NCBI GenBank assembly: GCA_012295275.1
Contig: CM022669.1
Location: forward strand, 9,114,001-9,178,000
From: Chrysomallon squamiferum
Taxonomy: Eukaryota; Animalia; Mollusca
Reading direction: 5' to 3'
Length of the DNA: 64,000 nucleotides
Positions 43,144 through 64,000 of the stretch are shown here, in pieces. The notes beneath the pieces were generated by a model. It had not been told where the DNA came from and searched no databases. It was given only the letters and a program-made list of their open reading frames with translations. Both the position numbers and the translations under genes were made by a program. How positions within the stretch are numbered: position 1 is the stretch's first letter; each line of letters begins with the position of its first letter.

Positions 43144-44287
43144 TCAAGACACAGATAAAACAGTCTTACAGTGCAGTTTTTCAATATTTCTAGAAATCAC
43201 CAATCCACCTAAATATCTTATTCCTTCTATTATTGGACTAGATCCGTCTTCTTGCCAAGGTTTCAGTAGCCACGGAAACCAGCGGAATGGAGTGAGGATG
43301 AAGTGTTCAAAGTCGTGATCGACAAAGCCATAACTTGAAGCTAAAATTCCATCGACAACAAGAGTTCCTGTATCTGTGACTGGTACGTACAAACCTGTAA
43401 AATGTTTAACTCTGACAAAGCGTTCAAACAGTATTAACGTTAAAAACACGCATATCATGGAGAACGGGAAAAAAATCGTGAAACAGAAAATGAATGTGTT
43501 AAAAATGTGCTCACGTAAGGAAAGGTAAATAAGTGAATTATTGATTTTCCTAAAAAAAAACAAAAAAAAAAAAACATTTCAGCTGATGGATTCAAATTTT
43601 GATTATCATTGTTTTTGTGTTTTTGTTATTCTACTTGTTGTTGTTTCTGTTGTTGTTGTTGTTGTTGTTACCTTATTTCGACAACTGTCTCTGGATAAAA
43701 ACCAGCTGAAGACCTCTCTGTAGAGAAGATAAAATCATCTTTTTCTTCCATCACCACAAATCTGTTTAGACAACAACAACAACATGAACAGCAGTCAAAA
43801 CAACAACAACAACAACAACAAAAATAATAATAACGATAACAATAATAATAATAATGATAATAATAATAATAATAATAATAATAATAATCATTATTATTAT
43901 TATTATTGTTATTACCTTTATCATTTTTATCATCTTCATCATCATTATTATTACTATTATTATTATCATTATTTTCATTACTATTATTATTATTGATATT
44001 ATACATATGTACAAGATAGACCTATACACATGCGTGGAAAAAAAAAAAAAAAAAAAAAAAAAAAAAAAAAAAAAAAAAAAAAAAGAAAAGAAACAAAAAA
44101 CAAAAAAATAAAAAAAATAAAATAAAACAAAATAAAATAAAATAAATAAAAAAAGAAAAGACAATGAGAAAGATGGTAAATGTCCACCCCATCACATTAA
44201 CGTTCTACCTTGACAAAGTCGGGGTGATTGTCTCTTACTGTTTTAAATTACTTATACATACACGTCTCATTTGCCTCAAACGTCTAA
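43144..44287 (-). pseudogene. Inverted, degenerate Hint/Hog paralog
   Basis: Last exon 43394-43144 (GLYVPVTDTGTLVVDGILASSYGFVDHDFEHFILTPFRWFPWLL...). Penultimate exon 43761-43672 is 90 nt instead of 107 (17-nt loss, phase broken). A probable 26-nt propeptide exon lies at 44287-44262 (xRRLRQMRR). No Cys-peptide/N-Hint or mid-Hint exon is visible in between. Confidence 0.75.
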
Positions 44288-46568
44288 CTGAATTAATAAT
44301 AATAAAATACTACTACTACTACTACTACTACTACTACTACTACTACTACTACTAATAATAATATAAAAATACTGATATATAGATGGATAGATACACGTAC
44401 CGGCAGATAGTTAGATAGGCAGACACACACACACACACACACACACACACACACACACACACACACACACACACATATATATATACACATACATACATAC
44501 GTAGATAGATGTAGAAAGATAAATAGATAGACAGACAGACGGACATACAGACAAATAGATATTTATGTATATGGGCAAAGAGGTATCTCTCTATAGAGAT
44601 AGATAGAAAAGAAGAAAGAAAGACAAATGGATGGACATATACAAAAAAATGAAAGCCAGAAGACTGGCGAATGATCGGATAAACAGATAAATGAAATGAG
44701 ATGAATTAATAAAATAAAAGCATCTGTATAGCTTTTACATTGACATTTTGTATCGTTTTACTGTCAGCTTAGCTCTAAAACAATATTCAGTTAACAGCAA
44801 AACATAAAAACAGTAAACATCGATGAGAATTGCATTTTGAATATTTTTAACATTTTCATTTCATGACATTTAGAACAGCAGTAGATATATGAAAAAAAAA
44901 AAAAAAAAAAAAAAAAAATAAATCGATCATAAATTTAAATACAAAATATACATACAATATAGACTGCTTTTCACGTGTGCTTTCTCATTTGCATATGTGT
45001 TTTACCTTTTTAAAATATTTTTTTACAGAACAAGAGCATCAAATGTTTTTTTTGTTTTTATTTTACAATTTTTATTAAATATTTTTCATTATTACTGTTG
45101 CATTATTATTGGTAGAAAGATTTTTAAACATGACTATGGAAAGAAAATATATTCCCGTATCTATCTTTCTGTCTCTCTGTCTGTCTGTCTCTCTGGCTGT
45201 CTGTCTATCTGGCTGTCTGAACATCTATATAATCTATGTATCTATGTGTGTCTGTATGCGTGTATGTCTGTGTGTGTGTGTCTGTGTATGTGAGTGTGTG
45301 TCCGTGAGGTTTTATGTGTGTGCGTGTGTCTGTGTGTGTGTGTGTGTGTGTGTGTGTGTGTGTGTGCAAACTCAGATGTTTAACTCACAAATTAATTTAC
45401 AACTAACAAACATACATACATACATACATATATGTGTATATACAAACATATATAGAGATAAAACGGCATATGTCGTTGGTCCCAAAGTGAATTCAACTTT
45501 GACAGAATCCATTGTATATATCTATATCTATATCTATATATCTATATCTATATCTATCTATCTATCTATCTATCTATCTATCTATCTATATATATATATA
45601 TATATATATATATATATATATATATATATAGATTTATATGTATATGTATATTTGTATGTTTATAGATATAGATATAGATATATACAATGGATCCTGTCAA
45701 CGCGATATGCCGTCTTAGACCGTGCAGGTTTATGAAGATTAAACATTAAACTGAAATATGTTTTATTTCAGTTAAACGTCTATCAGTTGGTCAGTTTTCG
45801 GACTATTAATTCCATGAACAGCTGCAAGAACTGGATTGTTTTACTTCGTGGTTAGAGGCTGAAAATAAGCACAGTTCTTTTAAACTTGTAGACAAACTAA
45901 ATTAACATGGACATGATAACTGACTTTACAGAATTACATCTACAGTGAAAATTACAATTAATAAACCAACACAAACTAGAGGTCCGAAACTCAGGAGAGC
46001 CGACTGCAAGTAATCGTAAACAAACATAAGAATAAAACATTTGTTAAATTATTTTGACACTTTGGGCATTATGATTTTCTAAATATAATGTTTTCATCTC
46101 AGTCCTCTTTTCAATCTTTTTTTTTCTCTCCCTTTTGTAGTTTGCCTCCTGTTTAAATGAAATAAAATAATAAAAAATACATAAAAATAAAAATAATAAT
46201 AATAAATAAATAAAATAAACAACAACAATGACAATAATAATAATACTAATAATAATAACAAGAATAATAATAATAATAATAATAATAATAATAATAATAG
46301 AATAATAATAAGAATAAGAAGAAGAAGAAGAAGAAGAAGAAGAAGAAGAAAAAGAAAACGAATGTATTTTTATGCCTGTATTTATACGCAAGAAAACACA
46401 AAAATGTAATTTTCACATCAGTGTGATTTGCATATATATATATCTATATATTCAATTCACAAAACTTAAAATAATTTGTATATTAATACATGTAATAAAA
46501 CATTTTCCTATATTTTGTGTTGTCATGTAATTGAAAGGTGTCAAAGAAAATGAATAAATTCGTGTATT

Positions 46569-46575
46569 TATATAA
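46569..46575 (+). promoter_or_regulatory. Putative TATA box, gene 1
   Basis: TATATAA 54 nt upstream of ATG 46623, which opens a hydrophobic signal-like stretch. Confidence 0.35.
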
Positions 46576-46622
46576 GAGTGCTTCCAGTTCTGAAACTTTA
46601 CAGCAGAATTTCGTGGTCGAAA

Positions 46623-61522: not shown

Positions 61523-63342
61523 ATGAATGTGCTGCCTGTTTGTTTCATTACTTTACTATTCGCAGGTAAATATAAATGTATGCACACACACACACACACA
61601 CACACACACACACACACACACACACACACGTGCGTACACACATACACGTATATAGTTCTGTTTCATTCCTTTTTTTTTTCTTCTCTTCTTTTCTTTCAGA
61701 TCATTTTGATATGTAACGTTATTTCTGTTAAAATTTGAATTATATTTTTCTTTATCCCGGTGAATACAAAAATATCGTGTTGATTACACATTGCAAAATA
61801 TTTTCAGTTCGCTTTAGTATTTCTTAGAAGTGTGAATACGAAATAGAGATACACTCTATTCATTTACAATAAAATTTTGATCCACTTTAAAATATGGACT
61901 GTCCCGTTTGCTACTGTAAAACTGAAGCTACAGTAATAAATTAATATTACGTTTTATCTGTAATAATAATGTATTGTCATTAATATTCACAGAATTTTGA
62001 TTATAATAACAGTTTTATTTGATGACTCAGTTTTAGGAACGGTACAAGATAACAAGAGGTTCAGAAAAAGTGGTTAGTGTCAATGTTTGTTTTGTATTAT
62101 CTCTTTATCTGTCTGTGTGTATGTTATTCTGTCCTTTCTTCTTTCTCATTTGTTTCTATTTGTTTTCTTCTCCGCGTCTCTCTCATGTCTTTTTTTTTAT
62201 TCAGTTTCTGTTTTTCTCTCTTCTTGTATCTTTCTTTGTTTCTCTATGAATTTCTTTCACTTTCTGTGTTTACGTCTTCATCTCTTTCTAAATTAACCTC
62301 TCTCTCTCTCTCTCTCTCTCTCTCTCTCTCTCTCTCTCTCTCTCTCTCTCTGTGTGTGTGTGTGTGTGTGTATATATTATATGTGTATATATGTGTACGT
62401 AGATATATATATGTGTGTGTGTGTGTGTGTGTGTGTGTGTGTGTGTGTAAATTTGTGATGTTTATAAACTCAAAGAAGATAATTCTGTGTTTATTTCAGC
62501 ACGACTGATTGGACGGAAAAGAAGTGTTTGTAAATGTTGATTGTTCAGATTTTGAGATGGTTGCTGAATTGTAACTGTTTCAAAATTTAATGTCACCAGA
62601 ACTGCTACTACTACTACTACTACTTCTACTACTACTACTACTACTACTATTACTACTACTACTACTACTACTACTACTACTACTACTACTACTATGAAAA
62701 CCTGTTTTAAGACCAAGCTAATGCGTCCAGTCTTTATTTCTTTCCTTTCGTCTTTCTTCCGTCGTTTTTTCTTTCTGTTTCTGATGTTGTTTAGTGAACA
62801 CTGAATGACGCGTGAATTCTGGATATGACATGTGCACGTGTGTATGTTGTTCTGTGTGCGCGCTTGTGTGTGTGTGTGTGTGTGTGTGTGTGTGTGTGAA
62901 TGTGTGTATGTTAGGCTGTGTGTGTGTGTGTGTGCGTGCAAGGTAAAATGTTGTATTTATTATTATTTAATTCAGGGACATTCCTGTTAATCTTTATTTG
63001 AAATGCTTAATTATTGTTTTCAGGATTCTCAATATTATTGTTGCTATTATTATTATTATTATTACTACTACCATTACTACTATTACTTTATTTATTTATT
63101 TGTTTATTATTATTATCAGGTAGTACCTTATAATTATTGTGCGTGTACCTTGAATGGGGCGAAAATGTACTCACCCAAAGATTCGTGTGAGTGCGGCTGT
63201 GAAGAAAGTTACGAGACAGAAGATAAGTGCTGTAAAGCATGTGAACACAGTAGTTGTTTCCATGGTGACAGTGAAGTTGTGCTAGCAGACGGGTCGGTGT
63301 TGAAAATGAAGGATCTTGCTGCTGGACGGAAGATTCTGACTG
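61523..63342 (+). CDS. Gene 3: paralogous 8-Cys peptide-Hint gene, 5' part only (continues beyond the window)
   Basis: Exons 61523-61565, 62031-62072, 62500-62525, 63120-63342 give MNVLPVCFITLLFAVLG TVQDNKRFRKSARLIGRKR SVVPYNYCACTLNGAKMYSPKDSCECGCEESYETEDKCCKACEHSS|CFHGDSEVVLADGSVLKMKDLAAGRKILT. Intron phases match gene 2, and the window ends inside the intron-4 minisatellite. Confidence 0.85.
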
Positions 63343-63699
63343 GTGAGTAAATTACGTGCCTCGTCGCTAAGTGAAGATCCTGATTATTCGTTTCTGAACT
63401 TTATTTTTTTTCCCCATCCACTGAAGTGATACCCAGAGGTACCTAGAAATAATGATGTTACCTGAACCTAACTCGCTGTCAGTACGTGCTTTCTGATGGA
63501 CGTAACTGTGTGATTGTGAACGTAACACGGTGTGTATATGGACATAGCTCAGAATGTTTGTGGACGTACCTCAGAATGTTTGTGGACGTAACTCAGTATG
63601 ATTGTGAACGAAACTCTGTTTGTCGAGGTAACTATATATTTGTAGAGATAACAATATTTGTGGATATAACTCTGTCTGTGGAAGCACGTATGTACTATG

Positions 63700-63985
63700 A
63701 ATGACACTAAGCTATATTCTAGTTCTATGTTATATGGGTGATATAAACCTATGTTGATAGTTCTTTGTTATAAGAGTGATATTAAGCTATGTTGATAGTC
63801 CTATGTTGTGTGAGTGATATTAACCTATGTTGATAGTCCTATGTTATATGAGTGATATTAACCTGTGTTGATATATCTTTGTTATATGAGTGATATTAAC
63901 CTATGTTGATATTTCTAAGTTATATGACTGACACTAACCTATGTTGATAGTTCTTTGTTATCTGAGTGATATCGACCTGGTTTGA
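63700..63985. repeat. Diverged 38-bp minisatellite in gene 3 intron 4
   Basis: Unit gtgatattaacctatgttgatagt(c/t)ctatgttatatga, at the position homologous to 55222-55708. Confidence 0.85.
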
Positions 63986-64000
63986 TACTTTTGTGTTCTA

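Follow-up and report, generated by a model that had tools for sequence, protein, structure and literature searches.

The window analysed here, a stretch of 64,000 nucleotides (nt) from the mollusc Chrysomallon squamiferum (assembly GCA_012295275.1, contig CM022669.1, positions 9,114,001 to 9,178,000, forward strand), carries a tandem array of genes for small cysteine-rich peptides, predicted to be secreted and each fused directly to a Hedgehog-type (Hint/Hog) domain with predicted self-cleavage. Judged from sequence, the array probably represents a diversifying family of peptide precursors within the Lophohog clade, whose peptides would be released by Hint self-cleavage without a sterol. We give this reading a probability of about 0.55.

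A tandem array of peptide precursors with Hog domains

Three tandem copies on the plus strand each encode a predicted signal peptide, a dibasic propeptide, a peptide of 46 to 47 amino acids (aa) with eight Cys and a Hint/Hog domain; two orphan last exons accompany them. The gene models consist of exons joined at GT-AG sites, with splicing inferred from DNA. In all three copies the pattern C-x-C-x13-15-C-x-C-G-C-x8-9-CC-xx-C runs straight into CFHGDS, and the six-frame motif scan that located the Cys1 codons (Table 1) also recovered the last Hog exon four times, once on the minus strand. The initial annotation had reported three such paralogs, and the full Cys pattern indeed occurs three times in the window. 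It occurs in none of 60 block shuffles; as the pattern was derived from the window copies themselves, the shuffles exclude only base composition as its source. A chance pattern was rejected.

From the last Lys-Arg (KR) to Cys1 the peptides measure 47, 47 and 46 aa in copies 1, 2 and 3, with eight Cys in each, in line with the 46 to 47 aa first proposed. The residue before Cys1, initially given as Gly, is Gly in copies 1 and 2 and Ser in copy 3. Signal peptides were predicted from hydrophobicity (Kyte-Doolittle window means up to 3.6).

Copy 2 (52843-57584) is the sole whole and open copy in the window. Its seven exons, with GT-AG sites throughout, give an open model of 280 aa (268 aa with exon 2 skipped), which replaces an earlier model of 282 aa. 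Copy 3 is represented by a four-exon start of 109 aa, cut at 64000 by the window end. Copy 1 (46623-49807) has the same exons but is not open in the assembly: its Hint exon has 173 nt rather than 172 and the frame changes near 48,975, which may reflect an assembly error or a pseudogene. Exon 1 of copy 1 has 42 nt, compared with 43 nt in copies 2 and 3, and alternative acceptors keep the junction in frame.

The Pfam family Hint (PF01079) matched six of the seven exon pieces (E 3.5e-10 to 0.048), and three of these matches passed the curated threshold; for the remaining piece, of 35 aa, there was no Pfam match. No Hedge-domain family matched any exon piece, so that the annotated Hint domain without Hedge stands. 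As a Hog domain without Hedge, a dibasic site, Cys1 and the TxxH histidine are all present, release of a small disulfide peptide is plausible.

Probable placement with Lophohog

The window genes very probably belong to the Lophohog clade, as far as Hog sequences indicate. A profile of the four last-exon copies had five matches among 2152 candidates, namely four Gigantopelta aegis Hog proteins and APD15680.1 of Acanthochitona crinita, which was deposited as Lophotrochozoan hedgehog-related and is the chiton Lophohog. The nearest proteins thus come from a gastropod, which makes a gastropod host likely. Single-exon protein searches matched 0 of 87 and 0 of 35 candidates. Hog domains of the window copies are 52 to 59% identical to those of G. 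aegis, 39% to that of chiton Lophohog and 30% to that of sturgeon Shh. In a tree of 24 Hog domains, nine Lophohog-type rows (including APD15680.1) split from four Hedgehog rows with a support of 93/98, a split found in 98% of 200 bootstrap trees, and the window and G. aegis domains formed a clade at 93/92. The tree comprises 10 proteins and 14 of 22 loci (L003 was dropped as a duplicate of L002, and L010, L014 and L018-L022 as partial, intron-split or unextracted); it contains no Lottia, Capitella, nematode or mollusc Hh rows, and the Hedgehog label of L002, L006 and L011 is our own reading. Hog intron phases are 1, 2, 1 both in copy 2 and in the single comparison gene, L020, where the first intron interrupts the Hog coding sequence at the same nucleotide (88).

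In APD15680.1, Haliotis rubra XP_046559732.1, P0013 and L020, Cys1 directly follows a six-Cys peptide of the form CxCxC-x9-10-CCxC, in a region preceded by KR. The distance from KR to Cys1 is 48 residues in the chiton protein and about 25 in the other three. The initial annotation had considered the architecture unlike that of described families, and Lophohog as having a different N-terminal domain. Neither view is supported: APD15680.1 and XP_046559732.1 combine a signal, KR, a CxCxC-x10-CCxC peptide and Hog, and the chiton Lophohog carries its six-Cys peptide at the same place. The N-terminal part is thus matched in kind by a described Hog family, while the eight-Cys version is still new. 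Judged by position and by the CxCxC...CC..C skeleton, the eight-Cys and six-Cys peptides may be homologous; their sequence match is weak. Three exons of the same CxCGC/CCxxC type (P0006, P0009 and P0010), with the same splice end position, lie on one 409 kb contig (nine hits overall). The three copies constitute a new and probably expanded branch of the known Lophohog family.

Several related sequences were seen alongside. L020 (3961-5779), located on a metagenome contig of 11.5 kb, is a canonical Lophohog-type gene with introns and a six-Cys peptide, of whose 19 non-Cys residues 14 are the same as in P0011. In P0011, two modules of six-Cys peptide and Hint start lie in tandem inside a single prediction of 146 aa, which suggests that duplication also occurs among canonical Lophohog genes. 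L001 (325-1026) encodes a precursor of signal, RVRK, four-Cys peptide and Hog which keeps Asp46 and adjoins the Lophohog rows in the tree. In two G. aegis genes, P0001 and P0004 (XP_041355650.1 and XP_041356556.1), an astacin metalloprotease is fused to a Hog domain with Lys46; a literature search on Hint, astacin and snail found nothing.

The name Lophohog was reportedly given by a 2008 Genome Biology review. The family is named in PMC5103448 and PMC9695228; according to the accessible part of the former, a limpet has 11 genes related to hedgehog, and the number of Lophohog sequences is raised to five. In the accessible parts of both papers no function is given for Lophohog. The literature search found no eight-Cys, hypervariable or Lys46 Hog family, including in the available sections of PMC7053062, PMC12373286 and PMC7850063, which deal with other Hint fusions; either feature, the Cys peptide or the lysine, may already be present in the 2008 review or in the supplements of PMC5103448, which lie outside this search. 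Within the searched literature, three aspects appear undescribed: a hypervariable cargo with eight Cys, its expansion in tandem, and the loss, across the clade, of the Asp that activates the sterol.

The active site keeps Cys1 and loses Asp46

Active-site positions were read against Hedgehog structures (PDB 1at0 and 7e2i) and in the 24-row Hog alignment. Cys1 and His72 (the TxxH histidine) are kept in all 24 rows, TxxH reading TDDH in copy 1 and SDDH in copy 2. All nine Lophohog-type rows, as well as L020, have Lys at position 46; in the other 15 Hogs this residue is Asp (six) or His (nine). True Hedgehog was rejected as an identity for the window genes since they have neither Hedge nor Asp46, and an intein since the precursor bears a signal and has no C-extein. 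In the window Hog domains the HWY of the sterol-recognition region is replaced; the tail retains a sterol-recognition-like region, in which the helix PFRWFPWL is conserved. Copy 2, with Asn, is the only one of the 24 rows to lack Cys143. This Cys is also kept in the orphan exon at 58725, as in copy 1, and is Ser in the orphan at 43144; another paralog, seen as a loose end in DNA run X1 (two contigs), has S-N-Y here in frame. The residue at -1 varies across the family (G, S, V, T, I, H), whereas Hedgehog keeps Gly. Two changes relevant to the chemistry were overlooked in the initial annotation, namely Asp46 to Lys across the clade and, in copy 2, Cys143 to Asn.

The available portion of PMC9163320 reports that D303 (D46) activates cholesterol and that D303A still cleaves with dithiothreitol (DTT) but without cholesterol transfer; D303R cleaves faster with DTT, and D303H stays active with a wider sterol range. 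Cys143 is required for Hedgehog autoprocessing and N-terminal cleavage, via a branched thioester, according to the accessible part of PMC12054796. By analogy, the N-S shift is likely retained in the Lophohog clade and sterol transfer likely lost, and self-cleavage of copy 2 may be impaired.

The peptide diverges more than its flanks

Between copies 2 and 3 the peptide is identical at 82 of 132 nt (62%) and its flanks at 85 to 99%. Matches are 38/43 nt in the signal exon, 35/36 and 22/26 in the pro exons and 87/88 in the Hint start, and three intron stretches are 92 to 94% identical (peptide against these intron stretches, Fisher p 3e-18). Over 44 codons of the peptide the nonsynonymous divergence (dN) is 0.60 and the synonymous (dS) 0.37, with all eight Cys codons unchanged. 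Net charge is about +1.8, +1.9 and -4.5 in copies 1 to 3, so that its sign flips between copies 2 and 3. Pairwise, the window peptides share only 4 to 7 of 33 to 36 non-Cys residues between paralogs. Purifying selection is seen in Hog exon 7 of copies 1 and 2 (dN 0.10, dS 0.33).

None of the three peptides matched a Pfam family at E up to 1, nor was there a convincing sequence match in PDB, where matches to ribosomal L37e and a designed repeat protein were dismissed as chance. ESM Atlas gave no usable match for the peptide exon, and the abalone protein matched only generic Hint clusters there. Fold searches with AlphaFold models of exon 4 found nothing; these models are of low confidence (pLDDT 59.6 and 64.1) and thus uninformative on fold.

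History of the array

Self-BLAST showed that 49540-49853 recurs at 58681-58993 (92.7%) and 51051-51450 at 59301-59717, and that copies 2 and 3 match at their starts. These recurrences indicate a tandem duplication, with a unit of about 9 kb, which produced copy 3 and left the orphan exon at 58725; the stretch 58681-58993 is the left end of the unit. Another fragment, in inverted orientation, is the exon at 43144-43399. The feature was initially taken to start at 43144; a Hog exon does lie there, but it is a lone inverted last exon, and no upstream exons for it were found on the minus strand within the window.

In DNA run X1, 82 contigs were placed, and depth was read over copy 1. One contig covered the copy 1 peptide exon and its intron at a depth of 39, while Hint exons 5 and 7 had depths of about 600-2700, which by the tool's own warning give no copy number. 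Intron-like loose ends were present at exon borders. These depths over copy 1 hint at tens of paralogous exons, some of them orphans.

Proposed release of the peptides and alternatives

In the proposed scheme the signal peptide would take the precursor to the endoplasmic reticulum (ER), where Cys1 and the TxxH histidine would make a thioester by N-S shift, to be passed to Cys143 where this is kept. By analogy with Hedgehog, copies that bear Cys143 probably cleave themselves. In copies without it, for instance copy 2, cleavage may be weak or absent. The thioester would be resolved by water or another small nucleophile; with Lys in place of Asp46 and HWY replaced, cholesterol is probably not the acceptor, and the same analogy makes it likely that none is attached to the released peptide. 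A convertase would remove the basic propeptide at the KR site. The resulting disulfide peptides of 46 to 47 residues may act at a biotic interface, on microbes, symbionts or predators or in self/non-self recognition, which would explain the duplication and fast change; we propose this role tentatively, at slightly less than even odds.

Several observations weigh against this reading. The sole whole open copy, copy 2, has Asn at Cys143 and also Ser for Thr in TxxH, and copy 1, with the better active site, carries the frame break. Support for the Lophohog split (93/98) is just under the 95/80 mark, and L001, with its Asp46, falls inside the clade. The eight-Cys and six-Cys peptides match with a BLASTP E of 2.1 and an hhalign probability of 4.9%, a value reached by 8 of 200 column shuffles. 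In the peptide, the excess of nonsynonymous over synonymous differences (pN > pS) falls short of significance, with a bootstrap share of 0.09 (0.06 once Cys is left out), and dS too is elevated. Copies 2 and 3 also align badly in the intron that immediately precedes the peptide. Exchange, a mosaic or conversion between older paralogs could thus yield the same contrast. Depth at exon 6 in run X1 is only about 100-130, and orphan exons inflate depth, which is not a copy number.

The peptides might instead be signalling ligands of the Hedgehog kind, released and then anchored through a lipid, either a sterol or a similar adduct, with Lys46 replacing Asp46, and acting in development or in patterning of shell or epidermis. 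The sterol-recognition-like tail with its PFRWFPWL helix would suit such a role, as would the conservation of canonical Lophohog peptides across species (up to 14/19 non-Cys residues). The D303H mutant in the accessible part of PMC9163320, active with a widened sterol range, indicates that position 46 tolerates a basic residue, and 9 of the 15 other Hogs have His there. The replaced HWY speaks against sterol transfer, and the few non-Cys residues shared by the window peptides are unlike what is found in conserved ligands. At the pH of the ER, moreover, Asp and His are better general bases than Lys. On balance we consider a lipid-anchored ligand unlikely. The Hog domain could also serve as a carrier or folding aid without release. 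The secreted product would then be the entire protein, with the peptide still attached through a thioester, an amide to Lys46 or an ordinary peptide bond. Asn and Ser at Cys143 in copy 2 and the 43144 orphan, the S-N-Y loose end of the X1 paralog and the variable residue at -1, in place of the invariant Gly of Hedgehog, all fit a domain that does not release its peptide, and the extra Cys pair may stabilise it extracellularly, as is proposed for nematode Hogs in the accessible part of PMC2362128. Yet Cys1 and His72 are without exception in the alignment and Cys143 has only one, and astacin proteases on the same Hog type in G. aegis fit a general release device, which makes a mere carrier improbable.

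The array may also be decaying, a set of recent duplicates and fragments with little function, in which peptide differences arose by relaxed selection and by exchange between old paralogs. Five Hog-bearing pieces within 21 kb include two orphan exons, one frame break and one piece without Cys143, and dN is not significantly above dS. However, such birth-and-death debris is also expected in an active family. Retention of 8 of 8 Cys in three otherwise dissimilar peptides without a stop codon, purifying selection on Hog exon 7 of copies 1 and 2 and the open seven-exon frame of copy 2 with its GT-AG sites render decay doubtful, and we prefer a diversifying family of Lophohog-type precursors whose peptides would be released without sterol.

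We know of no account that settles what non-Hedgehog Hog domains attach to their cargo, if anything. Small cargo suited to direct mass spectrometry, the clade-wide change at position 46 and natural Cys143 variants make the question of the adduct directly testable here. A far-reaching and quite unlikely possibility is that the Lys46 Hog is a natural protein-ligation device, which would leave members of a large diversifying peptide library as C-terminal thioesters, to be captured by an amine of their own N-terminus after KR cleavage (head-to-tail cyclisation) or of a target surface. Such a system would be a self-tailored ribosomal arsenal at the host-microbe interface.

Other features of the window

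The exons of the array are listed in Table 1. The window is AT-rich, microsatellite-laden animal DNA, and no other protein-coding gene was recognised by eye among the open reading frames in 1-43000, a region outside the Pfam scan.

Table 1. Exons of the Lophohog-type array (positions in the window)
Feature	Position	Strand	Details
Orphan inverted last Hog exon	43144..43399	-	Open frame; Ser at Cys143 position; also supported by tblastn
Copy 1 exon 1, signal-peptide-like	46623..46664	+	42 nt; TATA-like box about 50 nt upstream
Copy 1 exon 2, basic propeptide	47041..47091	+	Other AG acceptors at 47004 and 47025; splice choice inferred
Copy 1 exon 3, KR site	47314..47342	+	
Copy 1 exon 4	48180..48387	+	Eight-Cys peptide 48180-48299; Hint start, Cys1 at 48300, Gly precedes
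Copy 1 exon 5, Hint	48908..49080	+	Lys at position 46; TDDH motif; frame change near 48,975
Copy 1 exon 6, Hint middle	49256..49362	+	Extra Cys pair
Copy 1 exon 7, Hint end	49584..49807	+	ASCY, Cys143 kept; diverged sterol-recognition-like region; stop 49805-49807
Copy 2 exon 1, signal-peptide-like	52843..52885	+	
Copy 2 exon 2, basic propeptide with first KR	53367..53402	+	Skippable in frame
Copy 2 exon 3, RPKR site	53778..53806	+	
Copy 2 exon 4	54294..54516	+	Eight-Cys peptide 54294-54428; Hint start, Cys1 at 54429, Gly precedes
Copy 2 exon 5, Hint	55731..55902	+	Lys at position 46; SDDH motif
Copy 2 exon 6, Hint middle	56632..56738	+	Extra Cys pair
Copy 2 exon 7, Hint end	57352..57584	+	Asn at Cys143 position (ASNY); stop 57582-57584
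Orphan last exon (58725-58930) within duplicate	58681..58993	+	Copy 1 last exon and flanks, 92.7% over 314 nt
Copy 3 exon 1, signal-peptide-like	61523..61565	+	
Copy 3 exon 2, basic propeptide	62037..62072	+	
Copy 3 exon 3, RKR site	62500..62525	+	
Copy 3 exon 4	63120..63342	+	Acidic eight-Cys peptide 63120-63254; Hint start, Cys1 at 63255, Ser precedes

A dispersed repeat of about 200-300 nt occurs in two orientations and with 70-86% identity at 34404-34838, 41305-41407, 51995-52281 and 58028-58298. It contains GTTCGAGTC, which we take to be a box-B-like motif, and is likely a tRNA-derived short interspersed element (SINE); ARAGORN and Rfam gave no matches in the window. Intron 4 of copies 2 and 3 holds a minisatellite with a period of about 38 nt (55135-55709 and 63689-64000), about 80% alike between the copies, and a short tandem repeat with units of about 40 nt lies between copies 1 and 2 (50703-51049). 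An inverted match of 233 nt (89.7%) links 22787-23019 with 48682-48902 in intron 4 of copy 1 and is mostly GA repeat plus flank. A GC-richer stretch at 3134-3474, which contains a CCAAT-like element and in which no coding exon was recognised, is possibly the promoter of an unseen gene.

Comparison with known systems

Lophohog (APD15680.1, XP_046559732.1) is like the window genes in having a signal, KR and a short CxCxC...CC..C peptide directly before Cys1 without Hedge, and in its Hog domain, which shares F-x-K-R (Lys46), the PFRWFP helix and, in L020, the intron phases. It differs in its cargo, with six Cys and about 25 aa instead of eight Cys and 46-47 aa, and in a conserved Trp before CC that is absent from the window peptides; the latter are hypervariable, their genes are in tandem and some copies have lost Cys143. 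The nearest Hog domains, with Lys46 and the extra Cys pair, are those of G. aegis XP_041379577.1, XP_041350542.1, XP_041355650.1 and XP_041356556.1 (automatically named hedgehog-like or dpy-31-like). In XP_041379577.1 a signal is likewise followed by a small Cys peptide, here with CxC-x14-C, but the cargo of these proteins is a four-Cys peptide or an astacin protease, and the eight-Cys pattern is found in none of the four.

The enoplean nematode Enop-hog and Short-hog proteins (Trichinella Xhog1/2 and Xiphinema Shog1/2) were compared by their description in the accessible part of PMC2362128. They resemble the window genes in placing secreted short or six-Cys peptides on Hog, in an extra central Cys pair and in the adjoining position of Xhog1 and Xhog2 on the chromosome. 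They differ in belonging to a nematode clade, and neither a dibasic propeptide nor hypervariability is described for them there.

Hedgehog itself (Shh and Drosophila Hh) shares a Hint domain with Cys1, the TxxH histidine and the ASCY motif, followed by a helical tail. In contrast to it, the window genes have no Hedge domain, Lys for Asp46, a replaced HWY, 30% identity and introns inside the Hog coding region. Precursors of conotoxins and of invertebrate antimicrobial peptides are like the window genes in their conserved signal and propeptide, dibasic processing, fixed Cys frame, hypervariable loops and multigene arrays, and unlike them have no self-cleaving C-terminal domain. If the window peptides do form a diversifying library, they would represent a new disulfide scaffold with a built-in release device.

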